Below are positions 4,401-61,041 of a stretch of DNA of 64,000 bases, in pieces; within the stretch, counting starts at the first letter, position 1, and every line of letters starts with the position of its first letter. Source of the DNA: a virus; IMG/VR virus record IMGVR_UViG_3300020048_000073, positions 28,419 to 92,418 of that record; one strand, 5' to 3'. The translations under genes and the position numbers were made by a program. Under the pieces are notes generated by a model. The model made no database searches, was not told the origin of the DNA, and saw only the letters and a list, made by a program, of their open reading frames with translations.

Positions 4401-4892
4401 TTGGAACCAAGTCCACCTACCATTGATGAACTAACAACTGAATACACTGGACTACAAAATTACAAAATGTTATCTGATAATTTAATTTTAAATTCTGTAG
4501 AATTCTTGCCTTTGTTTGGCAGCAAGGCGCCTGAAAATTTACGTGCTACAATTAAAGTAATTGCTGCCAGCAATACAACTGCCAGTATCAGTGAAATAAA
4601 AAATTCTGTAGTGCAGGCAATGGATGCTTACTTTAGTTTAGACAAGTGGGATTTTGGAGAAACATTTTATTTCTCAGAGTTGGCAGCATACATCCACAGC
4701 GAAATAGGTGGAATAGTGTCATCCGTTGTATTAGTTCCTTTAAACACACAAAAATCATTTGGCGACTTGTATGAAATAAGATCAGCACCATATCAAATTT
4801 TTGTCAATGGTGCCACTGTAGATAACATTGAAGTTATTACAGCCCTTACCAGCAACAATTTACAAACTGCCCCAGGCAGCGGGGTTATCTAA
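1488..4892 (+). CDS. Baseplate wedge subunit, T4 gp6-like
   Basis: YDFETLR...FNDYIESSEFIALLD...ENFLDTAERRDSVVKLA..GY.P N-terminus and ETIEQIKQRAP..Y.TQDRMV..EDY motif. Confidence 0.85.
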   Translation: MARTTRQTVIFGVEDWKRIYQTYREGDFQSYDFETLRKSFVDYLRLYYPETFNDYIESSEFIALLDVMAFEGQALAFRTDLNTRENFLDTAERRDSVVKLANLVGYTPKRNTPSSGYLKVFSVQTTENVIDYNGVNLASVTVNWADPSNFDWQEQFSAIINASLLDTQRVGVPANRQDILGVETAEYTVNLVPGFLPIVPFTATIDGVNMPFEAVNASSRGADFVYEPSPLPNGRFNVLFRNDTLGFQSANTGYFFYFKQGVLQNQDFNLPERISNRVVNINIEGCNNQDHWLYQLDNVGNISTEWVFTQSVYGAAAEQLSPNIRNLYSITSRVNDQISLNFGDGVFSQIPVGTFRAYVRASNGLQYIINPSEMQSVLIPISYVSRTGQIETITFTCGITNPISNAQARETIEQIKQRAPARYYTQDRMVNGEDYTNFPFTTYNSILKSSAVNRASIGTSRYLDLVDNTGKYSSTNSFASDGALYEDNDNASFTFAWQSVNDITDAIVNQVEPQLISTGLRQFYYANFDRPPLEFLNVGWVQSTTLVNETTGYFKSNTGGPIPIGPFTSNNFKYVVVGALVKFVPPAGYYFNKDNRLVLGTPLSDTDKLVLWASPSAVVNEGTNQGAGNFPDGVGPVVLNNFIPTGAIASQVIPLFVTDLPASVEVSVAEQISFNQNFGLGYNNLTQTWYVITASNIDINAPYSQANQQSTAGVNNDASWLIQFVTNGTQYTVQVRNLVYYFGSVLQTRFFYFTDDKIYDPRTGVVISDFINVLKTNSRPDSNSPLLGDTVLKIVGQPIQSDGYVDDYQVLVSFQDNSGDGVPDNPDFFNDIVAPNVNPNQKLVFFQSTVDFDDLQRYLLLEPGIVNSNYPTLDSIELVKTEFSPGQVFYAYSAQLFYVLTLTVVGQLILVPSTEYLAKTGRQALFFQYRHNAPLTARIDPGSTNIIDLYIVTLAYYTAYQNWIKDITGTVLEPSPPTIDELTTEYTGLQNYKMLSDNLILNSVEFLPLFGSKAPENLRATIKVIAASNTTASISEIKNSVVQAMDAYFSLDKWDFGETFYFSELAAYIHSEIGGIVSSVVLVPLNTQKSFGDLYEIRSAPYQIFVNGATVDNIEVITALTSNNLQTAPGSGVI

Positions 4893-7800: not shown

Positions 7801-10800
7801 GTCTATTCAACTTTATCGAAATTCTAAATTTTTAGATCCTAGCAATTACACTGTAAGTCAAAACGACAAAGGATCTATTATTACTATTGATTCTGGGGTC
7901 GCTGAAATAGATGATATCATCGAAGCAGCAGTGTTGTCTAGTCAAATTAGTACACAAGGATTTTATCAAGTACCTATTAATTTAAGCAATAATCCATTGA
8001 ATGCCAATAGTGCCGAATTTACCTTGGGCACCGTGCGCACTCACTATCAAACTATTTGCGAAAACTTAATTGATCTGCAAGGGCCAGTTGACGGTGCCAA
8101 CAATACTCGTGATCTTGGAAATATTTTACCTTACGGGTTAACAATTTTACAACAAAGTAGTCCTGTAACATTGGCCGGCTACTTTATGCGTGAAGAACAG
8201 TATGATATTTTTAACGCATTAGACTACAACGGTCGAGAGTATATTAAATTCAAAGATAAATTGTTAGACAATGTTGTTACTAATGACTACACTAACTTGA
8301 CAATACCCGAAGTAGTTGATGCTGCTATTGCTGATATTAATCGCGGTAAAACTGACACATATCCGTTCTATTGGAGTGACATGTTACCTGCCAGTGGCAG
8401 CTACACTACTACAACAATAGAAGTTACTCCTATTACAGGCGACACATTTACTACTGTTCAAACATACAACTTTAGCAGTGCTAACTTTTTGGGATTGTTG
8501 GTGTATCTTAACGGTGAACAATTAAATATTGGTCAACAATACACAGTGGCAACTGACGGTCCACGATTGACAATCTTAGTTCCCTTGACCGTAGGCGATA
8601 TCCTTACTATTAACGAATACAATAATACCGCTGGTAATTTTGTGCCTAATACACCTAGTAAAATGGGCCTTTACCCAGCGTATGCGCCTGAGCTTTACTA
8701 TGACACTACTTACGCAGAACCTACTTTTGTTGTGTTGGGGCATGACGGTAGTAAGACTATTGCCTTCCCCGACTATAGAACACAAGTATTGTTAGAATTT
8801 GAAAAACGAATTTACAACAACATTAAAATGCAGGGTAATCCTGTACCACTGTTTACTGAATCTGTTGTACCTGGATTCTTTAGTCCAATCAGCTATGTAG
8901 ACAGTGTGGGCGTACTACCACCAGGGCTTGTAAATGTGTTACCTGGATATTTCCGAGGAATAGATTATTCCAGCCCTGAAGTCACTGCCATTCTAAGTAA
9001 AAGTTTTCTGTCATGGGTGGGTTGGAACAAATTAGACTACAAAACACAGGACTATATAGCACAAAATGCTTTCTCTTGGAATTACAGTCAATCCGGAAAC
9101 AAAATTACCAATGAACCACTACAAGGTGCTTGGCGCGGTATCTATCGTTATTTTTATGACACTGATACTCCTAATTTAACTCCATGGGAAATGTTGGGCT
9201 TTACAGTTGAACCAAGTTGGTGGTCTTTACGTTACGGCCCAGCACCTTACACAGCAGGTAACTTAGTCTTGTGGGACGATTTAGAAAACGGTATTGTTGC
9301 CGATCCTGCTGGTCCTTACATTTTACCTGAATATGTTCGTCCTGGACTTGATAAAGTAATCCCTGTAGATGAACAGGGTGAGTTATTATCACCTTTTGAA
9401 TCAGTAGTAGGTAACTATGATGAAAATTCATTCCGAAGAAGCTGGCAAGTAGGTGATGGCGGCCCTGTAGAAGCATCGTGGATTTACAGCAGTTCATATC
9501 CGTTTGCCTACATGCGATTGTTGATACTGTCGCGACCAGCAGAATTTTTTGCTTTGTTTGCTGACAGAGATCTATACAAATACAGTCAAGAATTTGGACA
9601 ATACTTGTACAACGGTCGATATCGATTAGACGCCAACGGTGTAGAAGTTTATGGTAACGGAGTAAGCAAAGCATCCTACATCAACTGGATAGTAGACTAC
9701 AATAAACAAATAGGACTTAATTCTACTAAAGATTTAACTGAAGCGTTGCAGAATTTAGACGTGCGGTTGTGCTATCGTTTAGGCGGGTACAGTAGCAAAG
9801 ATTATTTGTCTTTCTTTTGTGAACGCAGCAGCCCCAACAGCTCCAATACCAGCCTATTGATTCCTGATGTCAGCTACAATTTGTCATTGTACAAAAATGT
9901 TCCATTCTCAAATATTGAATACAGTGCGTGTATTGTTGAAGTAGTGGAGGGTGGCTATCAAATTTTTGGATACAGTAATAGTTTGCCTTACTTTACTATT
10001 CAAGTAAGCAATCCCAACGGATTTCAACAAACTATTGAAGCCGGTGGAAAAGTGGTTCAAGTCCCTGCCACCTACACACAACAAGTGGCACAAATACCTT
10101 ACGGTACAACATTTACAAATGATGCGGCAGTGGTAGATTTCTTACTAGGTTACGGAAAATACTTAGAAGACAACGGCATTATCTACGAAACGCAGGAAAA
10201 CGGTTACACAATGAACTGGCGACAAATGGCCGCTGAGTTTGTTTACTTTGCGCAACAAGGTTGGTCGCCTGGTACTATGATTAACTTAAATCCCAGTGCA
10301 ATCACACTGGCTGCGGTAAAAGCCGGTGCTGTTGTTGACACAATAGATAGTATTAGTCCTGAAAACATGGTGTTGGATCAGAATCGTGCTGTGTTACCTA
10401 CTAAAGATTTAATTATAGAACGTTATGGTAATGAATTTACTATTAATTCACCTACCAACCAAACTATTTCATATGCCAATCTCAAGTTTACATCTTATGA
10501 GCAAATAGTTGTATTTGATAATGCAGATACATTTGGCGATTTAATTTATGATCCAGTTACAGGTGCCAGACAAAACCGTCTTAAGGTTGTGGGTTCAATT
10601 ACGTCCGAGTGGGATGGCACCTTTGACACTCGTGGATTTATTTTAAATGAAAACAATATTCAAGAGTGGCAACCAAATCGTAAATATACTAAAGGTGAGA
10701 TTGTGCTGTACAAAAACACCTATTGGTCAGCTCAGACTATTGTTCAACCCAAAGAATTATTTGATTTTAATGACTGGGTAAAGAGCGATTACACTAGGAT

Positions 10801-13800
10801 TCAACAAGGCTTGTTGCCCAACATAGCAACTAAAGCAGATGAATTAACAGATGTGTATGATGTTCGAACTGTAAATTTACAAAGTGATGCCAATTTATTT
10901 GCTTATGGACTAATTGGGTTTAGACCTCGTGAGTACATGGCAGCACTTAATTTAGATGACTCTACACAGGTACAGGTGTATCAACAATTTTTAAAGTCTA
11001 AAGGCACAAGATTATCCACAGACATTTTTACTCGAGCACAGTTTGGCCGATTGTCAGGCGAATACACTATCTACGAAAACTGGGCAACATTAGCTGGCGT
11101 TTATGGTGCACAGGCCAATAAATCGTTTATTGAATTGCGATTAAATGAAGCATTACTGCGCAGTGATCCATCTACAATTCAAATACTGCAACCGCCCAAC
11201 TCCGGCATTGCTAACCAAACAATCTTTTTACAAGATGTGTGGCGAGAAAGTTACAAACTTACCAGTCCAAACGTATTCAAAACTTTTTACCCGCAAGTCA
11301 ATGACTCTACCCTGCCCACAGCCGGATATGTAAATTTTGACGACGCAGACATTACTGTGTTTAATATCAATGACCCCAAGTCAATAGAAGCAAATATTGA
11401 AATAGTGGGCACTGGCACTACCATTTGGATAGCTAAAACTAATAGTTACGACTGGGGCATTTTTAGATGTGAGGTTGAAGGTGCAAGAATTACACAAATA
11501 TCTGACAATTTAAACAGAACATCGTTGGCTACATTTGATCAACCACACGATTTAGCTGTGGGTGATTTAATTATTATTCGTTATTTTAATGAAGCTGTTA
11601 ACGGTGTGTACCGTGTGTTAAGTGTGCCTGCTATTAACTCTATTACTATTGCCTACACGTTTACTCCTTCAGATCAAACAACAATTTTTGGTACTGGCTT
11701 AGTATTTTATCTACAGTCAATGCGTGTTAGTCAAGCCAGCAACATAGCAGATTTGCCCTATGCTGATAGCTTTTTACCTGGCGCCAAAGTTTATGTTGAC
11801 AACGACGGTTTTGGTCATTGGGTAGTGTTAGAAAAAACAGATTCATTTAGCACATCGGAAGTTATTTACAGTACAGGCATTGATCCTTCGTTTAATGTGC
11901 GTTATGGCGCTAGTGTGTCACAATCGTACGACCAAGTGTCGGCATTGGTTGGGGTTCCAGGATTGGATACTGACCAAGGAATAGTTGTAGCTTATCGCAG
12001 AAATAACAATAACAACTATGTTTTTACTGCTCCGTTAAAATTAGACACAATTGGTACTCGAGGATTTGGGCAGAGTAGTTGTTACGGTGACAGTAACTGG
12101 TCAGTCATTGGTGCTCCAAGAAGTTTAAATAATTTGGGTTATGCCGCAATATTATTTCAAAGTACTGGCATTGGCGATTACAGATTTACCCAACTGTTAT
12201 TGCCTCCTGATTATTTGATTAATCCTGTTCAGTCTTTTGGTGAATATGTGTGGATGACTGATGATGATCGTTGGTGTTACGTAGGTGCTCCTGCGGCCAA
12301 CAAAGTTTACGCATACGGCCTACAAAATGTTCAAGTACAAACTGTTTCGTACACTGGTGATGGCACAACTGATACATTTAAATATTCTGATAATATTATC
12401 ATTGACAATACTAAACCCACACAATTATTTGTTAACGTAAATGGAGCCGAACAAATAGCTGGCGTAGATTACACTATTGTTTCTGTAGGATCAGGATTTG
12501 GTGTAGAATTTGTCACAGTACCGCCTGATAATGCTATTATTGGAATATCACGTCGCGAATATCGTCTTTATGGTAGTGAAAGTTACAATAACGTGCCCAG
12601 CACTGCCGTAACTGGGTCTGGCACTGGTGCTACTTTTATTATTACCAACCTTCGAGGTCAATATTCAGTATCCATTGATAACATTGGAACAAATTACGCT
12701 ATTGGTGACACCCTTACAATTTTAGGAACTGCCGTGGGTGGAACAACACCTGCTAATAATATTACTGTTACTGTAACTGCTGTGTCATTTACCGGAATCA
12801 CTGAATTTACATTTGCCGGTACTGGAAATTTTAACACTATTGTAAATGTTGGTGATTATTTCTACACAGCCACAAGTATTGAAACATTTAATCTCAAAAT
12901 AAACAACGTATTACAGAGACCTGAAATAGACTACACTTACAACGTTGGTACTGGCCTTATTGTATTTGCTGTAATCCCAGCTATTGGCGCAGAAATTGTT
13001 GTTAATGCTGGCTCTTACTGGAAATACGCAGGTGAAATAACCCCAGCTGGCATACCAGTTGACGCTGAATTTGGTGCCAGCGTTTCGGCAACTTCCACAG
13101 GCGATCAAGTGGGCATTGGTGCCCCACGTGACGACGGAGCTCAATTAAATTCAGGTGCAGTTTATGTTTACGGAAAAAGCAGTTACACATATATTGTATC
13201 TGATCCCACACAATTGGCCTATGCTATTCCTGGTAATGTTATTAACGGACCTGTAGCAGTTACTCTCAATAATAACTATTTACAAAATTCATATCAGTCT
13301 ATCAATGGTCAATTCACTGTGCCTGTCGGTAACACACAAATTGAGTTGACTACAACCGCGTACGGTAATGCCAACATAGTCAGCGCAACAGGCACATCTG
13401 TAACGTATTCTTTTAATGGGCCAGCTTCCCCTTCGTTTATTGCTGGACAAACTGTAACTGTAACTGACATTAGCCCTGTTAACTACAACGGCACTTTTGT
13501 AATTTCTTCTGTATCAGGCAACACGATTACCGTTTCGTCTACTGTAATGGCCGGTAATGTTATTACTCTAGGTAATATTGTTCAGTACCAAGCCCAGGTT
13601 GGTGATGAAATTACCATTGAAAATAATCAGTTTCAGTTAATACAAAGAATTTTAAGTCATTCCGCAATAGATGAGGAAGATTTTGGTCGTGCTGTGGAAA
13701 TTTGTAGTAATGATTGTTCGATTGTAATAGGTGCTCCCAACGACAGCACACAGTTAACACAATCGGGCTCTGTTGATAGAAATGTTTCGCAACCAGCAAT

Positions 13801-16800
13801 TTATGGAACAATAACCACTACTATTGCTAATCCTGTTCTGTCAGCTGGTGACACTATCAAGATTAACAACATATTAGTAGCAGTCCCTGTAGCTAATACT
13901 ACTGTGGCTGGATTAATTTCTGCTATTAATGCGTCAGGCATACCCAACGTTATTGCCACCCCAACCCCTGATGCTACATTTATTGGTAACAATTCAACAC
14001 AAATATTTGGAATTGGGCCAATTTACACGGCTGCGGCTTCCTACACAACTGTGGTTTATGTTAATAATGTGCTGTTAACAGAAAATATAGATTACACATA
14101 CAACGCTACGACCGAAGAAATTATCTTTGTTACACCACCAGCTAATAGAGCTGTAATTGTTGTGGTGTCCGGAAGAATGACACTCAGCGTTAAAAACGTT
14201 GAAGCATCCAAATTGTACAGCATGCTTAGTGTACTGCCTGGCGTGACCAGCACTGTGTTCAATGCTTTGGGAGTGACTCCATATGCGTGGACACAAACAA
14301 TTTATCCGCCTGAACCAACATACTTTGGCAAATTTGGATCATCGTTGGCATTATCTTTAGATGCTGAATTATTATTAGTGGGTTCACCAAACGGAAATAT
14401 TTATCAAGCAACAACATTTGACAACGGACAAACATTTTTTGATGATCGAGCCACTACGTTCTTTAATCCTATATTTAATTCCGGAGTTGTGTACAGTTAT
14501 GATTATCTATTAAGTGCCAGTGACACAGTCGAAACACCTGGCAAATTTATCTTTGGCCAACAAATTTACAATACGGTTGAACAGCCAAACGATCAATTTG
14601 GGTCTGCGTTAAGTTATGTTGATGGAAAACTATTAGTAGGCGCACCCAACGGCAACAACGGAGCCAACGGATATGTGGCTACCTTTAATAATCCTCGTGA
14701 TATTCCAGCATGGCAAGTTGTTTATGCTCAACAACCAGTGGTAGATACAAAATTAATTAACAATGCTTATTTGTTTAATAGACTATTGAGCCAAGAACAG
14801 GATTATTTAGATTTCTTTGATCCGCTTCAAGGTAAAATTTTATCTGTAGCACAAAGAAATATTGATTATGTGGGAGCAGTTGACCCAGCTACTTACAATG
14901 TTGGACCAGTACGTAATAACGGTACAATGTGGGCCAACGAACGAGTAGGAGAAATTTGGTGGGATACAGATTCAGTTAGATTTATCGACCCCAACCAGGA
15001 TAACATCATTTATCAAAGTAGACGTTGGGGCCAAGTGTTCCCTGGATCAAGAATAGACATTTACCAGTGGACGTCAAGCCCAGTGCCACCCTCAGAGTAC
15101 ACGGGTGAAGGTACACCCCTGTCTATCGAAAGCTACACGGTTAAAAGTTTTCTAACTGCTGATAATATTTTTGACACTGCATATTTCTTCTGGGTACGCG
15201 GTATCACCAGTGTAGCAACCGGCGCTGGCAAAAATTTAAGTACTACTGCCATTGCGTCTTACATTGAAAGTCCTCGTTCCAGCGGCATACCCTACCTAGC
15301 ATTTTTAAATGCCAGCACCGTGGCAATATACAACAGCGGATCTTTATTATCAGCGTTCGACACAATTCTTCATATTAACTATGACAGAAATTTCAACGAC
15401 GATAACATACATTTACAGTATGATTTAGTTCCTGAAGGCAAACCTGATGGATTTTTGACACCAAAACTTTATTTAAAACTAATTGATAGTTTTAGTGGTA
15501 TTGACAGTAACGGCAACAATGTTCCTGATCCTACATTAAGTCCAGCTGAACGCTATGGTGTACAGTTCCGCCCAAGACAAAGCATGTTTTCTAACAGATT
15601 TGCGGCGTTAGAAAATTATCTGGGTTATGTAAATAATGTTTTATTAAAATTCCCTATTCGTGAAACACGTAGTTTTAATTTGTTAAACAGTAGTCAACCT
15701 ATTCCTAGTGTTGCAAGCGGACAATGGAATCTACAAGTGCCGACTATCGAAGTCCTGTCGTATCAGGACATTTATGCCGTACCTTTGGGTTACAAATATT
15801 TGGTAACATCAGATTCAACCTTTCAAGGCAAGTGGACAATTTATGAAGTCAAATTAATAAGCAGTACCAGCGCAATTCGAGAACTGTCACTGACAACAAT
15901 AGAAAATTTTAACACAAAATTGTTTTGGAGTTACGTCGATTGGTATGAACCCGGATACAATTCTTCAGTGCAAATTGTGATAGAAGTGCCTAACAAAACA
16001 GCATTAGATGGCCTGACACTAAGTCAGTACCCAATAGGAACCAGTGCCAAAATAACCGCTAACGGCCAAGGATTGTTTGAAATTTATTTAAGAACTGATC
16101 TAGGCTGGAGACGGGTAGGTTTAGAGAGCGGGACCATTCAATTTTCTGAAACATTATGGAATTATGCCCTTGGCAAATTTGGCTATGATGCCGACGTATT
16201 TGATAATCAAGGGTTTGATCAGGAACCTGTAATTGAAACTAGAAGAATTATTGAAGCTATTAATCAAGAATTGTTAATAGATGAATTATTAATAGATCGC
16301 AACTCAGCTCTGGTGCTTATGTTTAGTTTTGTCTACAGTGAATTTGTAGCTCCAGACTGGTTGTTTAAAACTAGTTTAATTGATGTAAATCATAAAATAA
16401 GCACGCTAGACCAGACTCAAATTTATCAACAAAATAATCAAGAATTTGTATTGGATTACATACAAGAAGTCAAACCATATCACGTGCAGATTCGTGAATT
16501 TAACCTCGGTTATTCTACTACAGACTTGAATGCTTTGAGTGTAACAGATTTTGATGTGCCGGCCTATTATGACAACTCACTTGATGTGCCTCAGTATGTC
16601 AGTCCGGTGCTGTTGCCATACGAGCATGCCAACACCACAGTAAGATCAACGGTCAGTGATCGTGATTTTAACGCACAGATATGGAAAGAAGAACCTTGGA
16701 ATCAATGGTTTAATAATTTTGGTTTAGAAATAGACAGCATTACTATCGTCAACGGCGGCGCCGGCTACACAGAAATACCAGACATTGTTGTAGCAACGTC

Positions 16801-19800
16801 AAGCGGAGTATTGGAAGATGCTATTATTGTGCCTACCCTCAATAATTTGGGTACAATTACCAGCGTGGCCATTATTAATCCAGGTCAATATTATGGCGAA
16901 ATTTCTTTGATTGTATCTGGGGCCAATGCGGTGCCTGCCAATTTACAACCCACATTGAGTCCTGGTCCAGTACGTGATTTCATTATCAATATCAAATACG
17001 ACCGATATCAGTATGAGTCTAATATTGTGTCTTGGACTGCCAACGTTACATATCCATTCGGCACACAAGTTCGATTTGCCAACACAGTATTTTCAGCAAA
17101 CGTAGAGCCCAGTGTGACCAGCAGTGATTTTAACCCGTTCCAGTGGACATTAGTTCAAGCCAACGCACTAAGCGGTGTTGATAGAACCATGGGTTATTAT
17201 GTGGCTGGAAACAACATGCCAGGCCTAAGCCTGCCGTTATTGATTACCGGAGTTGAATACCCTGGCGTGCAAGTTTACGGTGATGGCTATGTCTACGGCA
17301 ACGTGACATTGGACGCAATTTATGAAAGCAACTATTTAGATACATATCTGGGCACACGCCCATTTGATGTTAATGTAAATGGTGGTGCCTACATTGGCAC
17401 CTACAGCAGCCATGCTCCTGAGGAACTTGTTCCAGGTGCAGAATTTGACACAATGGATTTGAAAGTGTACACGTCAGGTGGATTTGATCAAGAAAACGAC
17501 GGACATGGATTTCCATTGTTTAGTAAATCCTACACAGTTGAAGATTGGACGGTCAACACCCTTGATTTTGCTGGCTTGGTTGCGAATCCCACAACAATAG
17601 TAGTTACTAATCAGTCTGCTGGAGTAGTTTATGTTGAAAATATTCAATATGCTGTAAATTGGGCAACACAAACTGTGTCTTTACTAACTCCAGTAAGTTC
17701 CGGTACGGTCATTAACATTACTGTCTATGAGTTGGGTGGCGGGAACCAGTTATTTGTTACAACTGCTACCACCGGCAACGTAGACACCGTTACAATTAAG
17801 TTACCTATATCTAATTCGATAGTGACAGAATATGTGCCGTTTGTCAATGGACAATATTCCAATAGTTTTGTTGTGTCAAACACAACGTCACAAACTACTG
17901 ATCTTACATTTACGTTTGGCAATACTGCTAATAGGTTAATTACCACAGTTGCACTGGGTGCTGGCAATGCCGTGCCTAACTACAGTTGGTCTAATCCAGT
18001 ACCGCAAATTATTACTGTAACGGACCCATCTGTATCATCTTACACATTAACCAATAACATAGATTATTTAAATCCTGTTACTTGTGTCGTTAATCGTAAC
18101 GGCGAAAGATTGCGCACAGCTGCAGGTGTAGAATATGCCAATATTCAAAGTTCAACTCAATTAGTTTATGCTTTGCCACGTAGATTAAGTGACGAACCCA
18201 GTGATTTTGCGGTTAGTGCGTACACAGTAACAGGTACAGGTCCTTTCCTAGTTGAATTTAATGTAGGTTTAGTACAAGATATTTCTTCAGCTGGATCTGA
18301 GGTAGACGTAAGAAGCGACAGCAATCCGTTATTAGAAACAGGCACTACTCCGTTACCTGTAGTATCAAACACTTCAACTACAATTACAGTAGAGTATCCT
18401 ATTGATCCAGGCAACACCACTGTGGGCAACACCACTGTCACTACTGTGTCTTACAGCAACACTACGCAAGTTTACATTGACAACATTTTACAATCTGCTA
18501 ATAGTGGAAATTACCAATATTCTACACCTTACTATTCGCCCACAGGTAAAACGCCTATTACAACACAAGGTAATATCACTGTAAACGGCGCCAATGTAAC
18601 TTTTGATCTGTCTGCACCTGTAAGTTATCCTGCGTTGGTGCCTAGTGCTTGGGAAGTGTTTGATTTAGAGGGTAATAATTCCAGTTTAAACGGCACATAC
18701 CTTTGTGTGGCAGCAAACGCCACGTCTATTACATTAGAATATCCTTCAGCACCAGGTAACATTGTAGACCCAGGCAACACTATTTTGTCCAGCACGCGAG
18801 TAATACAATTTGCCAATACTACACCAGACTTAGGCAGTGATTTGTATGTAGCGACTAATCTAAATGTTGATGCTTTTGTGGCCAATGGAAATATTGTAAT
18901 TAATACTGCGCAAATAGGAAATTTAGTCACTGGTGATGTGCTTGAGGTTATCACTTGGAACGATACTCGAGAACAAAATTTGTTGAATCAAGTTTGGGTT
19001 GGGCCCACTCAATCTGTATTCACAGTGTCACAGGGATACGATACGACACCTTACGACACCGGCACTGTAGATTTTGCACCAGGCTCGTTTGATTATGGAT
19101 TTACTTTAGATGTTCCTAGAAATAATTTCATATTACAGCGCCCTGCCCCTAATTTAAGCAGATTGTGGGTGACATTAAATGGGGAACGATTATTCCCCGG
19201 AACCGGATTTACTGTTCGGGGAACCGAGCTTGTGTTGGCAGTAGGCACCGTTAATTCAGGTGACGTGGTAATGGCACTGGAAGTTTCTAATGATGTAGTA
19301 ATTACCCCATATGTCTATAGAATATTCCAAGACATGAGAGGTCTACAATTAAATTACAAAATTACTACACAAACAACCACTGAGTTGACTGAGCCTTTAT
19401 TGGCACCAGATGATCAAAACTACAACGATACAATTTATGTTGCTGATATTGATGCGTTGTCTGAACCTGATTTAGATAATAATACTTGGGGAGTATTGAG
19501 TATTAACGGTGAGCGAATTATGTATCGTGTGCGTGATGTATCAACAAGTTCAGTAAGCAGTTTGCTTCGTGGCACTTCAGGAACTGCCGCCGCTGCTCAT
19601 GAAGTAGACGCAGTGGTTACTAATTTTGGATTGATTAACCTATTACCGGCACAATATCAAAATTATGTAAATGTGTATTCTGAAATAGCCAACGGAACTG
19701 ACACCGTCTTTACTGCTCCAGATATTACGGCACCGTTTGGATCAGCCCCTACTGTTAGTTCAGTGGCTGCTACGGTGTTTGAGTTGTCACAGGCAGTTCA

Positions 19801-20161
19801 AGTAACAGTGGGTGGCGCGACCCCTGCTCAACGGTTTAATGGTGACGGATCAGCAAATCAGTTTACTCTTGACATTACAGTGCCTAACAATGAAGCTATT
19901 TTGGCATTTAATAACGGGGTAATTTTGCCCTATAATGCTTACACTGCCAACGGAACATTATTAGTAATAAATGATACCCCCCAAGAAGGTGATGTAATAG
20001 AAGTTAGATATTACAAAATTGTAACGCCAACTATTCCACCCGCACCTGTTCCAGCGGTGTTTGCAGTAGAAATAGAATTTGTGGTACCTCCGCCCGAGGG
20101 ACTTGAAGTTACTTCATCTATTAAACAAGCAAAAACAATAGATTTTGGCGAACTAGCGTAA
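4892..20161 (+). CDS. Giant (5089 aa) baseplate/tail structural protein with beta-rich and FG-GAP-like repeats
   Basis: 15.3 kb ORF translationally coupled to the gp6-like gene. Repeated FG.S/A....IGAP motifs and T/V/N-rich beta modules. Confidence 0.75.
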   Translation: MVNRVRSVDFLPPIFQTPTNRQFLGATFDQLVQEPGFKKTEGFIGRQVGPGVNPRDSYILETTKTRADYQLEPGVVSLKPTDTTKITNTITYPGINDALNLQGAYVDDPDRLYSSEYYAFDPFVDLDKFINYSQYFWIPVGPQAVAVNARQYNFTEDFTVTRNPDTNAYTFSDTTGAIFGNNPTITLLRTGNYNFTVEQNLTQTETVPVNVVGSNGYTINNAVNPTVQLVRGNTYVFDFTYGFGVNSFYIKTVISAGTIDLWTDGITNNGGTGPTGQLIFKVPQDAPNTLFYCDLLASSNFQGQFDIIDAVSGTGPLFSIQTQPGVEGEISWSPNISSRVPTIGGVTNNTTDLGVINFIPPTTIAQNYFYNLTNIGGCDLISNNVPLAYFQGSPTVANFISTYGNIDGINNLDGRTIFFPSENDNTIYLITYVAGNITITVSTVVSNDTKFTILFGAQYINTTWYRGTTGNVIQMPLLTALDSELYYQDSEDPLMFGKINLIDATSTAILDINEILGSKQYTSPNGVAFTSGLIVFFDGLTTPASYQNSYFVVEGVGESITLTPLANLVVPETYANNLSIPYDSTNYDMYPYDGDLNAPIDLDYIVMNRASPDNNAWSRCNRWFHVDTITAAAQYNNQVPDFSNFERARRPILEYRSGIKLFDSGTLGASPITVIDLTTTNALLTVNGQPEFVIDQFSLLEGSTVIFAADTDPRVRNKIWQVSFVTPDSTPATNAGDFVVGRTYRIVTLGNTNFTAVGATSNTVGTEFTATGVGTGTGTAEFIQPVINLTAIYTMLINDMVVTLTGATTKGTSWYWDGIEYLRAQQKTSINQAPFFDVFDVDNVSFGDQIKYPSTSFRGNKLFSYAVGTGQDDPVLGFPLRYRTISNIFDIIFDNNLYTDTFTFTKDRVGSTLNVSTGFVHEYTNRTDYARLLGWQTAITRSLVRQQFRFTYDGTPLQFDIFISPNFRVPSIQLYRNSKFLDPSNYTVSQNDKGSIITIDSGVAEIDDIIEAAVLSSQISTQGFYQVPINLSNNPLNANSAEFTLGTVRTHYQTICENLIDLQGPVDGANNTRDLGNILPYGLTILQQSSPVTLAGYFMREEQYDIFNALDYNGREYIKFKDKLLDNVVTNDYTNLTIPEVVDAAIADINRGKTDTYPFYWSDMLPASGSYTTTTIEVTPITGDTFTTVQTYNFSSANFLGLLVYLNGEQLNIGQQYTVATDGPRLTILVPLTVGDILTINEYNNTAGNFVPNTPSKMGLYPAYAPELYYDTTYAEPTFVVLGHDGSKTIAFPDYRTQVLLEFEKRIYNNIKMQGNPVPLFTESVVPGFFSPISYVDSVGVLPPGLVNVLPGYFRGIDYSSPEVTAILSKSFLSWVGWNKLDYKTQDYIAQNAFSWNYSQSGNKITNEPLQGAWRGIYRYFYDTDTPNLTPWEMLGFTVEPSWWSLRYGPAPYTAGNLVLWDDLENGIVADPAGPYILPEYVRPGLDKVIPVDEQGELLSPFESVVGNYDENSFRRSWQVGDGGPVEASWIYSSSYPFAYMRLLILSRPAEFFALFADRDLYKYSQEFGQYLYNGRYRLDANGVEVYGNGVSKASYINWIVDYNKQIGLNSTKDLTEALQNLDVRLCYRLGGYSSKDYLSFFCERSSPNSSNTSLLIPDVSYNLSLYKNVPFSNIEYSACIVEVVEGGYQIFGYSNSLPYFTIQVSNPNGFQQTIEAGGKVVQVPATYTQQVAQIPYGTTFTNDAAVVDFLLGYGKYLEDNGIIYETQENGYTMNWRQMAAEFVYFAQQGWSPGTMINLNPSAITLAAVKAGAVVDTIDSISPENMVLDQNRAVLPTKDLIIERYGNEFTINSPTNQTISYANLKFTSYEQIVVFDNADTFGDLIYDPVTGARQNRLKVVGSITSEWDGTFDTRGFILNENNIQEWQPNRKYTKGEIVLYKNTYWSAQTIVQPKELFDFNDWVKSDYTRIQQGLLPNIATKADELTDVYDVRTVNLQSDANLFAYGLIGFRPREYMAALNLDDSTQVQVYQQFLKSKGTRLSTDIFTRAQFGRLSGEYTIYENWATLAGVYGAQANKSFIELRLNEALLRSDPSTIQILQPPNSGIANQTIFLQDVWRESYKLTSPNVFKTFYPQVNDSTLPTAGYVNFDDADITVFNINDPKSIEANIEIVGTGTTIWIAKTNSYDWGIFRCEVEGARITQISDNLNRTSLATFDQPHDLAVGDLIIIRYFNEAVNGVYRVLSVPAINSITIAYTFTPSDQTTIFGTGLVFYLQSMRVSQASNIADLPYADSFLPGAKVYVDNDGFGHWVVLEKTDSFSTSEVIYSTGIDPSFNVRYGASVSQSYDQVSALVGVPGLDTDQGIVVAYRRNNNNNYVFTAPLKLDTIGTRGFGQSSCYGDSNWSVIGAPRSLNNLGYAAILFQSTGIGDYRFTQLLLPPDYLINPVQSFGEYVWMTDDDRWCYVGAPAANKVYAYGLQNVQVQTVSYTGDGTTDTFKYSDNIIIDNTKPTQLFVNVNGAEQIAGVDYTIVSVGSGFGVEFVTVPPDNAIIGISRREYRLYGSESYNNVPSTAVTGSGTGATFIITNLRGQYSVSIDNIGTNYAIGDTLTILGTAVGGTTPANNITVTVTAVSFTGITEFTFAGTGNFNTIVNVGDYFYTATSIETFNLKINNVLQRPEIDYTYNVGTGLIVFAVIPAIGAEIVVNAGSYWKYAGEITPAGIPVDAEFGASVSATSTGDQVGIGAPRDDGAQLNSGAVYVYGKSSYTYIVSDPTQLAYAIPGNVINGPVAVTLNNNYLQNSYQSINGQFTVPVGNTQIELTTTAYGNANIVSATGTSVTYSFNGPASPSFIAGQTVTVTDISPVNYNGTFVISSVSGNTITVSSTVMAGNVITLGNIVQYQAQVGDEITIENNQFQLIQRILSHSAIDEEDFGRAVEICSNDCSIVIGAPNDSTQLTQSGSVDRNVSQPAIYGTITTTIANPVLSAGDTIKINNILVAVPVANTTVAGLISAINASGIPNVIATPTPDATFIGNNSTQIFGIGPIYTAAASYTTVVYVNNVLLTENIDYTYNATTEEIIFVTPPANRAVIVVVSGRMTLSVKNVEASKLYSMLSVLPGVTSTVFNALGVTPYAWTQTIYPPEPTYFGKFGSSLALSLDAELLLVGSPNGNIYQATTFDNGQTFFDDRATTFFNPIFNSGVVYSYDYLLSASDTVETPGKFIFGQQIYNTVEQPNDQFGSALSYVDGKLLVGAPNGNNGANGYVATFNNPRDIPAWQVVYAQQPVVDTKLINNAYLFNRLLSQEQDYLDFFDPLQGKILSVAQRNIDYVGAVDPATYNVGPVRNNGTMWANERVGEIWWDTDSVRFIDPNQDNIIYQSRRWGQVFPGSRIDIYQWTSSPVPPSEYTGEGTPLSIESYTVKSFLTADNIFDTAYFFWVRGITSVATGAGKNLSTTAIASYIESPRSSGIPYLAFLNASTVAIYNSGSLLSAFDTILHINYDRNFNDDNIHLQYDLVPEGKPDGFLTPKLYLKLIDSFSGIDSNGNNVPDPTLSPAERYGVQFRPRQSMFSNRFAALENYLGYVNNVLLKFPIRETRSFNLLNSSQPIPSVASGQWNLQVPTIEVLSYQDIYAVPLGYKYLVTSDSTFQGKWTIYEVKLISSTSAIRELSLTTIENFNTKLFWSYVDWYEPGYNSSVQIVIEVPNKTALDGLTLSQYPIGTSAKITANGQGLFEIYLRTDLGWRRVGLESGTIQFSETLWNYALGKFGYDADVFDNQGFDQEPVIETRRIIEAINQELLIDELLIDRNSALVLMFSFVYSEFVAPDWLFKTSLIDVNHKISTLDQTQIYQQNNQEFVLDYIQEVKPYHVQIREFNLGYSTTDLNALSVTDFDVPAYYDNSLDVPQYVSPVLLPYEHANTTVRSTVSDRDFNAQIWKEEPWNQWFNNFGLEIDSITIVNGGAGYTEIPDIVVATSSGVLEDAIIVPTLNNLGTITSVAIINPGQYYGEISLIVSGANAVPANLQPTLSPGPVRDFIINIKYDRYQYESNIVSWTANVTYPFGTQVRFANTVFSANVEPSVTSSDFNPFQWTLVQANALSGVDRTMGYYVAGNNMPGLSLPLLITGVEYPGVQVYGDGYVYGNVTLDAIYESNYLDTYLGTRPFDVNVNGGAYIGTYSSHAPEELVPGAEFDTMDLKVYTSGGFDQENDGHGFPLFSKSYTVEDWTVNTLDFAGLVANPTTIVVTNQSAGVVYVENIQYAVNWATQTVSLLTPVSSGTVINITVYELGGGNQLFVTTATTGNVDTVTIKLPISNSIVTEYVPFVNGQYSNSFVVSNTTSQTTDLTFTFGNTANRLITTVALGAGNAVPNYSWSNPVPQIITVTDPSVSSYTLTNNIDYLNPVTCVVNRNGERLRTAAGVEYANIQSSTQLVYALPRRLSDEPSDFAVSAYTVTGTGPFLVEFNVGLVQDISSAGSEVDVRSDSNPLLETGTTPLPVVSNTSTTITVEYPIDPGNTTVGNTTVTTVSYSNTTQVYIDNILQSANSGNYQYSTPYYSPTGKTPITTQGNITVNGANVTFDLSAPVSYPALVPSAWEVFDLEGNNSSLNGTYLCVAANATSITLEYPSAPGNIVDPGNTILSSTRVIQFANTTPDLGSDLYVATNLNVDAFVANGNIVINTAQIGNLVTGDVLEVITWNDTREQNLLNQVWVGPTQSVFTVSQGYDTTPYDTGTVDFAPGSFDYGFTLDVPRNNFILQRPAPNLSRLWVTLNGERLFPGTGFTVRGTELVLAVGTVNSGDVVMALEVSNDVVITPYVYRIFQDMRGLQLNYKITTQTTTELTEPLLAPDDQNYNDTIYVADIDALSEPDLDNNTWGVLSINGERIMYRVRDVSTSSVSSLLRGTSGTAAAAHEVDAVVTNFGLINLLPAQYQNYVNVYSEIANGTDTVFTAPDITAPFGSAPTVSSVAATVFELSQAVQVTVGGATPAQRFNGDGSANQFTLDITVPNNEAILAFNNGVILPYNAYTANGTLLVINDTPQEGDVIEVRYYKIVTPTIPPAPVPAVFAVEIEFVVPPPEGLEVTSSIKQAKTIDFGELA

Positions 20162-56014: not shown

Positions 56015-56098
56015 TGGTGGAGTATCCTAGGATCGAACCAGGCATGTCTAAGACGGCGGATTTACAGTCCACTGCATCACCATTGATGCTTCTACTCC
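56015..56098 (-). tRNA. tRNA-Tyr(GTA)
   Basis: Loop CTGTAAA, long variable arm, CCA. Confidence 0.92.
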
Positions 56099-57968: not shown

Positions 57969-58044
<76 letters not shown>

Positions 58045-58050
58045 ATTGTT

Positions 58051-58124
58051 TGGTGGACAGTGAGAGAATCGAACTCTCAATACCGGCTTGCAAAGCCAGT
58101 GTTATCCCATTTAACTAACCGCCC
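58051..58124 (-). tRNA. tRNA-Ala(TGC)
   Basis: Loop TTTGCAA, G3-U70, CCA. Confidence 0.95.
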
Positions 58125-58132
58125 GTATTAGT

Positions 58133-58235
58133 TGGTGGTTATCCCACCAGATGCCCGTAGCCTGCCACGTCTGACAGGTTCACTGGTAAATCCCAGCAAT
58201 ACCGTTAGTCTCTAGGAGACCTAGAGGGCCGGACA
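58133..58235 (-). ncRNA. Candidate four-way-junction RNA plus 3' hairpin ending in CCA
   Basis: TGTCCG/CGGGCA closes CTCTAGG/CCTAGAG, GCTGG/CCAGT and CCTGTCA/TGGCAGG. Followed by TGGTGG-GATAA-CCACCA. Confidence 0.55.
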
Positions 58236-58243
58236 ATTCTGTA

Positions 58244-58951
58244 CTAGTTTTTAAAATCAAGTTTGTCTAATAAAAACTGGCTAAATTTTTCATGCCCATC
58301 TTCTAGTAAATGACCAGTTGATGTTGTGGCAATATTGTTTGTCTCTGCGAATTTAGGAATACTAAATTTATGCAGGTCTATGATATTGCTATCAGTGCCG
58401 CATATTTTAAACATTTCTAAAGATTTTAAATAATTCCATTGAGCATTGCCCCAATTTTCGTTATTTGCTCCTGAAAAAATAAGATAATCTATGTTGTACA
58501 TTTTTAATGTGTTTACAAACATAAACAAATTCGTGTAAAAATGGGTTAATTGTCTGTTTATGTTTAAATCAAGTAAAATAGCCTTGGCAGTGCTCCACAT
58601 ATTGTCACTGAGTAAAAAATCTGCGGTGATTAATTTTGATTCAGGATAATGATTTAAATCTGGAATCTTTGACAGAATTTTTTGGTCATTGTCTTCGTAC
58701 CATATTTCGTCTCGTGTTACAAAACTTATTCCTATGATAGCCAGTATTTCATTATCAGGTGATGCTTGTCTTAATTTAATCAGTGATTCAATAGAAGTTC
58801 TAAATATTCTATTATTGTTAGATCCAATAACGGCTTGATTTATTACAAATTGTTGCAGTCTTTTTCGTAAAAAATCACTGTAGACTTGTTGGTTGGTCAT
58901 TCTAGCAGAATAACTGTCACCGTTGACATAAATGTGGTCATATTTTTTCAT
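58244..58951 (-). CDS. SGNH/GDSL-type hydrolase-like protein (start MKKYDH)
   Basis: YVNGDSY, NQAVIGSNN, GH near the C-terminus. The ORF-track extension overlaps tRNA-Ser. Confidence 0.65.
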   Translation of the reverse strand: MKKYDHIYVNGDSYSARMTNQQVYSDFLRKRLQQFVINQAVIGSNNNRIFRTSIESLIKLRQASPDNEILAIIGISFVTRDEIWYEDNDQKILSKIPDLNHYPESKLITADFLLSDNMWSTAKAILLDLNINRQLTHFYTNLFMFVNTLKMYNIDYLIFSGANNENWGNAQWNYLKSLEMFKICGTDSNIIDLHKFSIPKFAETNNIATTSTGHLLEDGHEKFSQFLLDKLDFKN

Positions 58952-58965
58952 AAAATTATTTATTT

Positions 58966-59053
58966 TGGCGGAGAGTATAGGAGTCGAACCTATCCACCAG
59001 TCACCCAGTGACGGTTTAGCAAACCGTTGCCTTAACCGCTCGGCCAACTCTCC
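58966..59053 (-). tRNA. tRNA-Ser(GCT)
   Basis: Loop TTGCTAA, long variable arm, G73-CCA. Confidence 0.95.
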
Positions 59054-59078
59054 AAATATTTACACACTCTTTAGAATG

Positions 59079-59158
59079 TGTGTAATAAAGCACACTACCA
59101 CTCACGGATTAGGCAAGTGTGGCACGCCATCATTTATTCAAGTGTGCTTTATTACACA
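59079..59158 (-). ncRNA. Conserved-stem RNA cassette C
   Basis: TGTGTAATAAAGCACACT...AGTGTGCTTTATTACACA perfect 18-bp stem in the operon leader. Confidence 0.55.
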
Positions 59159-59251
59159 GTAGTTTTTAGTCTCACAAAAGAGATTCCATCGTACTGTCCG
59201 CCCATTTGTTTTTAAGTGTTTCAGGATCTCGTTTCCCACCTCACTACTAAC

Positions 59252-59280
59252 ATTATACAACAATTACGATTAAAAGTCAA
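59252..59280 (-). promoter_or_regulatory. sigma70 promoter TTGACT-N17-TATAAT for the main tRNA operon
   Basis: Near-consensus, ~200 nt upstream of the first tRNA. Confidence 0.8.
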
Positions 59281-59334
59281 TCAAAAATTGTTTGGGGTAT
59301 TAGTGCCCCGGTTGACAAGACTACCTCAAGCCAC

Positions 59335-59505
59335 TTATCTGCTTGCGGGGTATTTTGACCCCCTCGCAGATGCCTCTCTTGATTTAATCAAAGCATCTGC
59401 TCGGTCTATCTTATCTTGAATCAATTGTTTTTTAGCCACAGCGTCCAACACGTGATATGCTTGTTTTACAATTCGTTCATTTAATTTACTGTAATCTATG
59501 TTCAT
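59335..59505 (-). CDS. 56-aa hypothetical protein (not in ORF track)
   Basis: AGGAAGGA RBS. MNIDYSKLNERIVKQAYHVL...PASR*. Confidence 0.65.
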   Translation of the reverse strand: MNIDYSKLNERIVKQAYHVLDAVAKKQLIQDKIDRADALIKSREASARGSKYPASR

Positions 59506-59526
59506 TTTTCCTTCCTATCGATAATG

Positions 59527-59557
59527 AAAAACCCTAGGGTTTTTAGTCCTAGGGTCC
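59527..59557 (-). terminator. Intrinsic terminator of a putative attenuator
   Basis: GGACCCTAGG-ACTAAAAA-CCCTAGGGTTTTT hairpin followed by a U-tract. Confidence 0.7.
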
Positions 59558-59583
59558 TTAAAAGTAATGATGTTAAATTTTTA

Positions 59584-59742
59584 TTAACTATCGTATCCTT
59601 TTCGGACCCTGCCATAAAGTTCTGATACACGATCTAAACTATTGATATTCCCCATGGCTGTTAAGCAAATCGCGGGCCAATACTGTAGCGAGCCACCTAT
59701 TGGTTGCTTGTTAAAAGAGGAATGGTTAAAAGTCAAGTTCAT
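59584..59742 (-). CDS. Putative 52-aa leader peptide
   Basis: MNLTFNHSSFNKQPIGGSLQYWPAICLTAMGNINSLDRVSELYGRVRKGYDS*. Lies between promoter and terminator and contains the antiterminator AGGGTCC. Confidence 0.45.
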   Translation of the reverse strand: MNLTFNHSSFNKQPIGGSLQYWPAICLTAMGNINSLDRVSELYGRVRKGYDS

Positions 59743-59753
59743 ATTATGTTTAT

Positions 59754-59783
59754 ATTGTAACACTTATTTATGTTTTTTGTCAA
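59754..59783 (-). promoter_or_regulatory. sigma70 promoter TTGACA-N18-TACAAT, with nested ATAAATA
   Basis: -10 ends 11 nt upstream of the leader ATG. Confidence 0.65.
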
Positions 59784-59865
59784 GCGTTTTATCAAATAAC
59801 ACCGTAATATGGTAAAATAAGTCTAAAAATTGCTAAATATTAGTAATTACTAAGGATACCCGAAC

Positions 59866-61041
59866 ATGACTGCTAGATTTGACTTTCCCATTCCCACAAT
59901 ATTAGGTGGTTTGGCCAATGGTGAGATAGACACCGACAGTACCACAAAAAAATATGTAGATATTTTAGACAATAACCTATTTAACGGCAACAGTAGAACC
60001 ACTATTGCTGAACCAGACGGTCCTATGACCGTTAAGATTGCCGATACACCCAATGTTGCGGTGTTTAGTCAAGACGGAGTCACAGTTCAAGGCACCACAG
60101 TCAGTACATATTTCCGCGGTGATGGTAGTCAACTTACTAATTTGCCTGGTGGCAACTATGGTAATGCCAATGTGGCTGCGTATTTGCCAACATACACCGG
60201 CGGTATTGGCGTAGTAAGTGAAATGAGTGATGTTTTTATTGGACAAGATGCTGGGGCGAATCCCAATATCACAGTGCCAGCTTACAATAGAATAGCCATT
60301 GGAAAAGGTGCAGGCAATAGTGGATCTGAAGGATACAGTATTGCTATTGGCGATGGGGCCGGACGAGACCGACATGGTTACATGGCTATTGCCATTGGTT
60401 CACGTGCGGGCACTGGCAATTCAAAAGGTATTGCAATTGGCGATTTAGCAGGCATTAACGATCAAGGTGGAGGAGCAGTTGCTCTTGGATCAAGCTCAGG
60501 ACAAGCAGGACAAGGTTCGGGGGCAGTGGCAGTTGGATATCAAGCCGGCGGAGTTCGTCAAGGCTTACTATCAGTAGCAATGGGCTTTGTAGCAGGCTCT
60601 GCTGATCAGGGCGCCAACGCTATTGCAATTGGATCCAATGCTGCTTCCAACACACAGGCCGCATATGCCATTGCCATAGGCCACACAGCTGGTAACATAG
60701 GTCAAGGCAGTTATGCAATTGCTATTGGAGCCAATGCCGCTCCCAATAATCAACCTGCGCAGAGTATTGTAATCAACGGCACCAACACAACTTTAGATTC
60801 AGCTGGCGCTAATACATTGGTTGTTAAACCAATGGCATACAATCAATCTCGCACTGGGCAAGCCATGTGCTACAACACTACCAGTGGTGAAGTATTTGCT
60901 GGTGTGCCAAGATTACCCAACTATGCTAGTCTTGCTGAATTAACAACACAAGTAACAGACGCACTGCCTGGAAGTATTGCTTACGACACTGGCAACGCAA
61001 AAATAGCAGTTTACAATGGCTCCACATGGACTAATGTTTAA
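59866..61041 (+). CDS. Fibre/adhesin-like protein with YadA-head-like AIAIG repeats
   Basis: About eleven ~14-aa G...AIAIG..AG repeats. One copy of the GDGSQLTNL..NY.NANVA.YLPTY module. Confidence 0.7.
   Translation: MTARFDFPIPTILGGLANGEIDTDSTTKKYVDILDNNLFNGNSRTTIAEPDGPMTVKIADTPNVAVFSQDGVTVQGTTVSTYFRGDGSQLTNLPGGNYGNANVAAYLPTYTGGIGVVSEMSDVFIGQDAGANPNITVPAYNRIAIGKGAGNSGSEGYSIAIGDGAGRDRHGYMAIAIGSRAGTGNSKGIAIGDLAGINDQGGGAVALGSSSGQAGQGSGAVAVGYQAGGVRQGLLSVAMGFVAGSADQGANAIAIGSNAASNTQAAYAIAIGHTAGNIGQGSYAIAIGANAAPNNQPAQSIVINGTNTTLDSAGANTLVVKPMAYNQSRTGQAMCYNTTSGEVFAGVPRLPNYASLAELTTQVTDALPGSIAYDTGNAKIAVYNGSTWTNV

Follow-up and report, generated by a model that had tools for sequence, protein, structure and literature searches.

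The window examined here, which is the whole 64-kb stretch of viral DNA under analysis and derives from a 92-kb IMG/VR virus record with a CheckV completeness estimate of 27%, carries on its minus strand, ahead of a large array of phage transfer RNA (tRNA) genes, a compact leader element composed of a promoter, a short open reading frame (ORF1), and an intrinsic terminator whose 5' arm has an alternative pairing partner near the end of that frame. An original prediction, made from the letters of the DNA, had seen in this succession the layout of a ribosome-controlled attenuator, and the individual components were located where that prediction had placed them. The promoter (59783–59754, minus strand) is of the sigma70 type, with a -35 box TTGACA (59783–59778), an 18-nucleotide (nt) spacer, and a -10 box TACAAT (59759–59754) preceded by TG; 11 of the 12 box positions match, and the site is the top-scoring one in 6 kb. 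ORF1 (59742–59584, minus strand) begins at the ATG at 59742 and runs for 52 codons to the TAA at 59586–59584, encoding a peptide that, as had been claimed, uses all 20 amino acids and contains no run of any one of them. Since the ATG lies 11 nt after the end of the -10 box, the 5' untranslated region (UTR) would measure some 4–5 nt—in agreement with the predicted near-absence of such a region—so that the mRNA would be nearly leaderless; no Shine-Dalgarno sequence precedes the frame.

The terminator (59556–59527, minus strand) lies 26 nt past the ORF1 stop and reads, in the DNA, as GACCCTAGG, a 9-nt loop, and CCTAGGGTT, followed by a T run; in the RNA, a GC-rich stem of 9 base pairs (GACCCUAGG/CCUAGGGUU) encloses the loop ACUAAAAAC and is followed by a U5 tract (59531–59527). 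Our terminator scanner had a loop limit of 8 nt, and the 9-nt loop was the sole reason why it missed this hairpin. The alternative structure, to which we refer as the antiterminator, has a 5' strand (59610–59598) made up of AGGGUCC (59610–59604) and the extension AAAAG (59602–59598), and a 3' strand (59564–59551) made up of CUUUU (59564–59560) and GGACCCU (59557–59551), the latter heptamer being held in common with the 5' arm of the terminator, of which AGGGTCC is the exact complement. Between both strands a variable apical hairpin (59597–59565; GUUAA-loop-UUAAC) holds the stop codon of ORF1, and the minimum-free-energy (MFE) fold of the leader in the window comprises the AGGGUCC/GGACCCU pairing, the AAAAG/CUUUU extension, and the enclosed hairpin with the stop codon. 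Judged by this sequence alone, the 7-base-pair complementarity is only moderately unusual at most: the heptamer is found 2 times in the window versus 2.8 expected by chance, and the best duplex attains -13.7 kcal/mol versus -7.5 kcal/mol for shuffled sequences, with 0 of 100 shuffles reaching the observed value. That the complementarity exceeds chance follows instead from its conservation, with compensatory changes, in the relatives.

Those relatives are numerous among uncultured phages, the module being present in some 115 IMG/VR contigs, many of them from jumbo phages. An exact search with the pattern GGACCCTAGG-N8-CCCTAGGGTTTT recovered 46 IMG/VR contigs, several of 214–354 kb, and a search based on the first gene past the terminator (ORF2) recovered 70 further loci, the latter search having employed a subset alignment without the terminator sequence in order to obtain a sample free of terminator bias. 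In the module that these loci share, the promoter is followed by a short ORF, by AGGGTCC (in some loci altered to a form with wobble pairing), by the variable hairpin and the terminator, usually by an ORF2 that is preceded by a good ribosome-binding site, and by co-oriented tRNA genes. A profile of ORF1 brought together 178 cluster representatives at 50% identity, nearly all of 41–53 amino acids and aligned from residue 1. One further locus with the full module (L127; JBBAKF010000113.1, 5600–6223), including an ORF1 of 48 amino acids that contains all 20, resides on a 6.2-kb contig binned into a metagenome-assembled genome of Polynucleobacter sp.; this is a weak hint to freshwater Polynucleobacter as the host of this phage group, or else a binning artefact.

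The two mutually exclusive helices are both conserved by covariation. In a 48-sequence alignment the terminator stem is 99.1% paired, with changes on both sides at 6 of its 9 pairs; none of 500 shuffles paired as well, and the pairing dropped sharply in controls with a slid partner. For the antiterminator we used an alignment-free duplex search over 72 distinct sequences, in 71 of which a complement to the 5' arm of the terminator is kept, with at least 6–7 contiguous pairs and always 32–51 nt upstream; the duplex energies are from -11 to -16 kcal/mol versus about -6 to -9 kcal/mol for shuffles (median z -3.25). The covariation of this pair in related phages, by which the original prediction was to be checked, is thus present, and takes the form of matched substitutions in the antiterminator 5' strand and the terminator 5' arm: AGGGTCC occurs with GGACCCT, GGGGTCC with GGACCCC (in which instance the 3' arm of the terminator has changed to match as well), GGGGTTC with GAACCCT, AGGGTTCC with GGAACCCT, GGGGTTTCAT with ATGAAACCCC, and AGGGTTCGG with CTGAACCCT. 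At the first pair of the antiterminator in a MAFFT alignment, the A-U of 24 sequences and the G-C of 10 are bridged by G-U intermediates, which occur in 12, and the extension covaries as well, being GGAG/CUCC in relatives and AAAAG/CUUUU in the window. In that MAFFT alignment (A4) several divergent rows are out of register at the antiterminator, so that its figure of 89.9% paired is an underestimate with respect to the alignment-free result. Most relatives have Arg-Val as the translation of the antiterminator 5' strand, and the others Gly-Ser/Gly-Phe or Gly-Pro; that the same RNA strand is read in three frames indicates a constraint on the RNA. As to the relative stability of both structures, the median hairpin energy is -26 kcal/mol for the antiterminator versus -13.9 kcal/mol for the terminator, which makes the former about twice as stable, and the antiterminator is found in the MFE fold of 63 of the 72 sequences; read-through would therefore be the default in the absence of a ribosome.

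Two minor points concern the terminator itself. The sequence AAAAACCCUAGGGUUUUU (59544–59527, minus strand) is a perfect 18-nt palindrome, which in the read-through fold would sequester the U tract in a small alternative hairpin; divergent terminator types, those of L101 and L112 being examples, lack the palindrome. The notion that CCCTAGGG is a repeated terminator motif of this phage was rejected, as it has 2 occurrences in the window.

ORF1 is maintained along with these helices. The frame is open, with 41–52 codons, in all the relatives that were recovered independently of ORF1, and the two alternative frames hold on average 2.8 and 3.7 stops. In every relative the codons of ORF1 extend across the antiterminator 5' strand, and its stop codon falls within the antiterminator loop, 7–26 nt past that strand and 19–32 nt ahead of the terminator arm, which latter distance led us to reject a mechanism of the pyrBI type, in which the ribosome blocks the terminator. 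The frame is kept in each lineage despite peptide identities of 16–49% and many insertions and deletions; frame shifts near the antiterminator are compensated, the stop codon staying in the loop, and very divergent relatives that lie beyond recognition by the family profile have the same layout with unrelated peptides. The distance from the -10 box to the ATG, in the 56 distinct sequences with a recognisable promoter, is 6–7 nt in 13, 10–11 nt in 14, and 31–73 nt in the remainder, so that about 44% of the family have the short spacing of 6–11 nt. The relatives with the spacing of 31–73 nt possess a hairpin in the UTR as well as AAGGA-like Shine-Dalgarno motifs. In a subgroup that includes L002, L004, L008, L013, and L015, among others, the -10 box and the ATG are set apart by some 45 inserted nt, which contain a hairpin (ACAUGCGCCAAUAAAAAGGUGUAUGU) and then an A-rich stretch, and the initiation of leader translation may be controlled differently there.

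The most distinctive trait of ORF1 is the completeness of its amino-acid composition. Among 122 representatives with a mean length of 47.6 amino acids, 82 contain all 20 amino acids and 34 contain 19, the mean being 19.6 types; in random windows of equal length from the proteins of this phage we counted 16.7 ± 1.9 types, with all 20 in 2–5% of the windows. A null model that preserved the composition of the alignment columns yielded 21 ± 4 complete peptides of 122, with a maximum of 36 in 300 runs and a mean of 18.55 types, and the ORF2 family, taken as a control (n = 114; 53.6 amino acids), had 0 complete members and a mean of 16.1 types. The comparisons of ORF1 with the background and with ORF2 are alignment-independent. 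When the distinct ORF1s were read from the loci (n = 79), all 20 amino acids occurred in 58 and 19 types in 16; of the peptides less than 40% identical to one another 7 of 13 were complete, and one divergent peptide of 40 residues still has all 20. Moreover, where His is off its usual column it is found elsewhere in 60 of 61 peptides, whereas where His occupies that column a second copy exists in 21 of 61, and relocation is likewise seen for Cys, Tyr, and Phe: across the family the single-copy residues move rather than vanish. The sampling extends to codons, the share of distinct codons being 0.749 in ORF1 versus 0.610 ± 0.007 in the background. On the basis of these compositional statistics, the all-20 composition proves to be under strong selection throughout the ORF1 family.

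The leader promoter is likewise a family feature, being found in the equivalent position in 56 of 62 distinct relatives. A heptamer TAAATAA located in the spacer between the -35 and -10 boxes (59770–59764, minus strand) is kept in 55 of those 62; the combination of this motif with the -10 box has a single occurrence in the 64-kb window, and TAAATAA may be a candidate site for a phage or host factor acting on the leader promoter. The original prediction had also noted a second promoter downstream, and deduced from its presence that any control would be partial. That promoter does exist (TTGACT-17-TATAAT; 59280–59252, minus strand) and the deduction holds for the window, but not as a feature of the family: with a strict pattern, a full sigma70 match between the terminator and the first tRNA was found in only 3 of 20 loci, the window included, and is thus lineage-specific, while L015 has a weaker match that is embedded in the conserved RNA further downstream. 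Since the second promoter is not conserved, control should be more complete in most relatives than in the window, and the attenuator is probably the main gate to the tRNA array in most relatives and a partial gate here.

The array itself (59053–50720, minus strand), which is the presumed target of the regulation, contains 23 tRNA genes detected by ARAGORN, with small ORFs interspersed, plus a tRNA-Tyr(GUA) at 56098–56015 (minus strand) that ARAGORN missed and that has a long variable arm, an encoded CCA, a cloverleaf fold, and an Rfam score of 29.1 bits. Once this gene is counted, the set covers all 20 amino acids, as had been stated. The position at the head of the tRNA region is likewise conserved: in every relative with enough downstream sequence, co-oriented tRNA arrays begin 265–1200 nt past the terminator.

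The elements are conserved, both helices covary, ORF1 is maintained with its stop in the loop and with its complete composition, and the module is syntenic with tRNA arrays. These comparative data strongly support the proposed attenuator layout, and we consider, with a probability of roughly 0.7, that the module is a ribosome-dependent transcription attenuator gating a strong promoter into the phage tRNA array. According to this model, the nascent leader RNA would fold first, by default, into the long antiterminator hairpin, and as the latter would occupy the 5' arm of the terminator, the polymerase would read through into ORF2, the structured RNA that follows, and the tRNA genes. A ribosome that translated ORF1 while keeping pace with the polymerase would melt the antiterminator 5' strand and come to rest at the stop codon in the loop; with the antiterminator blocked, the weaker terminator hairpin would form, and transcription would end at the U tract. 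A ribosome stalled at any codon within roughly the first 35, on the contrary, would leave the antiterminator intact and permit read-through. Since ORF1 samples every amino acid and very many different codons, the ribosome would stall upstream whenever any usable aminoacyl-tRNA ran short, and more of the complete tRNA set of the phage would be made, the outcome being a feedback loop on decoding capacity. That the complete-composition leader would act in this way as a universal decoding sensor, with stalls caused, for example, by anticodon nucleases or by phage-induced loss of host tRNAs switching on the complete tRNA array, is a more tentative proposal, to which we would give somewhat less than an even chance, and its tie to tRNA-targeting defences is one that we infer. 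The physiological trigger would on this view be the depletion of tRNAs or the action of anticodon nucleases and not the general state of translation.

In addition to the two main helices, the leader has two candidate helices inside ORF1. The hairpin P1 (59703–59677, minus strand), CCAAUA...UAUUGG enclosing GUGG/CUAC—with UAGGC/GCCUA or GGC/GCC in relatives—is present in the MFE fold and in the RNAalifold consensus, and its pairs are formed in 26–30 of 36 sequences with mostly one-sided changes, which would amount to moderate support. The helix P2 (59680–59622, minus strand) would join UUGGcccGCGAU (59680–59669) with AUCGUguaUCAG (59633–59622); RNAalifold on a codon alignment gave pairing in 23–32 of 33–35 sequences, mainly with changes from G-C to G-U and with a few double changes, in L012 and L027. 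Its strands are the codons of the peptide motifs 'YW' and 'DR..E', which contain the invariant Trp and the D-R..P-E motif, and P2 could be a candidate pause hairpin.

Several considerations weigh against the attenuator model. The ORF1 of the window has neither a Shine-Dalgarno sequence nor a UTR beyond some 4–5 nt, so that its efficient translation is an assumption, and the second promoter downstream would, in this window, bypass the switch. The entropy of ORF1 at codon positions 1, 2, and 3 is 1.12, 1.07, and 1.22, respectively; the variability of the third position is thus barely above that of the other two, which indicates that much of the conservation of ORF1 is at the RNA level, and the three values together would show a mixture of RNA and coding constraint. 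In the same vein, the invariant Trp and the D-R..P-E motif coincide with the candidate helix P2. No classical 1:2 anti-antiterminator was identified, nor was any pairing found that would compete with the antiterminator 5' strand. As regards the composition of the peptide, the relocation statistics (odds ratio 0.009 and p = 3e-15 for His, p = 5e-11 for Cys, p = 6e-10 for Tyr) may be inflated by alignment shifts and shared ancestry, and no more than 18–19 of the 20 types are clearly placed before the stall point that would free the antiterminator, Glu being usually borderline. Finally, more tRNA cannot cure an amino-acid starvation, so that the logic of the circuit requires that tRNA loss or shortage be the usual cause of the stalls.

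Some of these same observations might be accounted for if the leader were an RNA sensor that acted in the manner of a riboswitch or was the target of a protein or a tRNA, with P1, P2, and the antiterminator binding a factor and the ORF being secondary or irrelevant. The strong conservation at the nucleotide level, with nearly invariant synonymous choices (GAT, AAT, TAT, GCC, GGC, GTC), would be expected from such a sensor, as would the candidate helices inside the ORF, the weak excess of variation at third positions, and the conserved motif in the promoter spacer; it would nevertheless leave without explanation the maintenance of the frame in all lineages at such low peptide identities, with indels and frame shifts compensated and the stop in the loop, as well as the AAGGA-type Shine-Dalgarno sequences of the long-UTR relatives, and there is no RNA-level explanation of the all-20 property. 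A search of 58000–60200 against Rfam at a permissive threshold (up to E = 5), moreover, returned only tRNAs and noise, with no family, T-box included. We accordingly regard an RNA sensor as unlikely. Slightly less likely again is a role for the ORF1 product as a regulatory arrest peptide comparable to TnaC, SecM, or the Erm leaders, in which the invariant Trp and the D-R-x-P-E motif would stall the ribosome in response to one molecule or factor. That possibility is favoured by the frequencies of those residues, since all 122 representatives have the Trp, about 93% have Asp-Arg, 91% have the Glu, and 74% have the Pro, and the W...D...P spacing is, as a lead only, reminiscent of TnaC; yet both motifs are the two strands of the candidate helix P2 and are absent from divergent relatives that retain the switch, stalling at D-R-x-P-E would place the ribosome right where the antiterminator 5' strand begins, and the presence of all 20 amino acids would be left unexplained.

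The least probable of the alternatives, in our estimation, is that ORF1 and its terminator make up a small phage gene of the usual sort, which encodes a functional micro-protein, with the complementary sequence serving only to stabilise or process the 3' end of the mRNA or to release a trans-acting small RNA. The conserved peptide motifs are compatible with such a gene, and there is a precedent for a trans-acting leader in the trpL of Sinorhizobium, whose terminated leader RNA and leader peptide have known functions in trans (PMC6614838, PMC7298713). It is, however, hard to explain without a switch why a helix twice as stable as the terminator should take up the 5' arm of the latter and be preserved by compensatory changes; furthermore, three different frames encode the C-terminal third of the peptide, no fold is predicted for the peptide (AlphaFold2; predicted local distance difference test, pLDDT, 56.6), and the module is tied to tRNA arrays. 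The ORF1 peptide gave no match in Pfam, PHROGs, or the ESM Atlas. A reading of ORF1 as a type I toxin was rejected, the peptide being without a hydrophobic segment.

The attenuator model has close parallels in the trp, his, leu, thr, ilv, and pheA attenuators, which have in common with the present module a short promoter-proximal ORF, an intrinsic terminator before the regulated genes, and an antiterminator that shares a strand with that terminator; in both, the ORF overlaps the regulatory RNA, and the position of the ribosome is presumed to choose the fold. The main departure is that the amino-acid-operon attenuators contain a run of cognate codons, whereas here there is none and all 20 amino acids are present instead; in addition, their target is a biosynthetic operon and not a phage tRNA array. 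Here, moreover, the stop codon lies inside the antiterminator loop and, unlike in those attenuators, no 1:2 anti-antiterminator was identified, in consequence of which an untranslated leader should give read-through and not superattenuation. Leaderless leader-peptide attenuators are known from the ilvBNC operon of Corynebacterium glutamicum (PMC11857589) and the trpL of Sinorhizobium meliloti (PMC6614838), whose leader ORFs, as here, lie at or beside the transcription start and have no Shine-Dalgarno sequence; there, however, codon runs make the leader responsive to branched-chain amino acids or to Trp, and the genes under control are biosynthetic genes of the cell. T-box riboswitches resemble the present module in that a decision between terminator and antiterminator in a leader reports the state of tRNA, but they bind a single uncharged tRNA directly and require no ORF, whereas here the function of the tRNAs would apparently be read indirectly, through the ribosome, and for all the amino acids.

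The tRNA genes of phages have been debated for fifty years, first in terms of codon compensation and lately in terms of escape from tRNA-cleaving defences, and the regulation of those genes is, to our knowledge, essentially unknown. In current views, with which the proposed mechanism would agree, phage tRNA sets counter tRNA-targeting host defences (PMC10264068, PMC11555353, PMC12409363), and these studies provide a reason for a phage to carry a complete set when the host tRNAs are cleaved or depleted; they concern what the tRNAs do, whereas the present module is a candidate for the regulation of the transcription of the array. A full-text literature search, with most subscription journals outside its scope, revealed no attenuator before phage tRNA arrays, no leader peptide with all the amino acids, and no sensor described as regulating tRNA-array transcription. 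By its architecture, the module would be a leader-peptide attenuator that differs from the classical family in its target (tRNA genes), in its bearer (phages), and in its logic (no superattenuation being expected); a family of leader peptides in which all 20 amino acids are nearly always present is new here. These data suggest that a large group of uncultured jumbo phages couples the transcription of its tRNA arrays to a read-out of translation quality, in what would be a generalisation of the classical attenuator principle from a run of one codon to one codon sample per amino acid. If the model is true, the module would be the first attenuator known for tRNA genes and the first leader peptide tuned to all the amino acids, a built-in sensor for tRNA-targeting immunity that would provide a testable link between such immunity and phage tRNA sets, and a compact and portable genetic sensor of global decoding capacity, while compositional completeness would become a new criterion for finding regulatory leader peptides.

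On the minus strand, past the attenuator, follow in order ORF2, the second promoter, a structured RNA, and the tRNA array. ORF2 (59505–59335, or 59516–59335 including its ribosome-binding site, AGGAAGGA; 56 amino acids) belongs to a conserved family of helical proteins of about 53 amino acids with the motif EHTLT.EQ..KLIQ.K.ERA, for which we found 301 homologues, all of them metagenomic and none reliably named; 'Spy/CpxP' labels given by one source look spurious, and no match was obtained in Pfam, PHROGs, or the ESM Atlas. ORF2 is missing in six lineages, in which the structured RNA and the tRNAs come directly past the terminator.

The structured RNA (59245–59060, minus strand, in the window) separates the attenuator module from the first tRNA in all the relatives, among them L003, L006, L012, L015, L020, L024, L027, L040, and others, just past ORF2 or the terminator. 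It contains a hairpin with covarying stems, an invariant AACGAGG loop, and an AGUGU/ACACU closing, and 3' of this hairpin the conserved stretches AAACGGGCGG, GGAUGGAAUCCC..GUGUGGGA, and GUAUUAAAGCA; it had no match in Rfam at the permissive threshold. We considered and rejected the possibility that this conserved element past ORF2 was a mere promoter, since stems that covary around an invariant loop indicate an RNA, which may serve in the processing of the pre-tRNA transcript or as its leader.

As to the phage itself, blastn and tblastn searches of the region and of the neighbouring proteins gave no match in cultured phages, and no related loci were recovered when the DUF6071 protein next to the region, or the fibre protein, served as the query. 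A covariance model of the module (R1), when run on the record from which the window was taken, matched the copy in the window and no other; on Agrobacterium phage Atu_ph07, Xanthomonas phage XbC2, Pectobacterium phage CBB, and Cronobacter phage GAP32 it produced only weak, terminator-like hits of 18–24 bits, so that the closest cultured relatives yielded no copy of the element. The baseplate wedge protein is about 35% identical to its counterparts in the jumbo myoviruses CBB, GAP32, XbC2, and Atu_ph07. Directly 3' of the baseplate wedge gene, on the plus strand of the window (4892–20161), lies an ORF of 5089 amino acids, and a giant structural protein after the wedge gene is found in the same order in Atu_ph07, CBB, GAP32, and XbC2.

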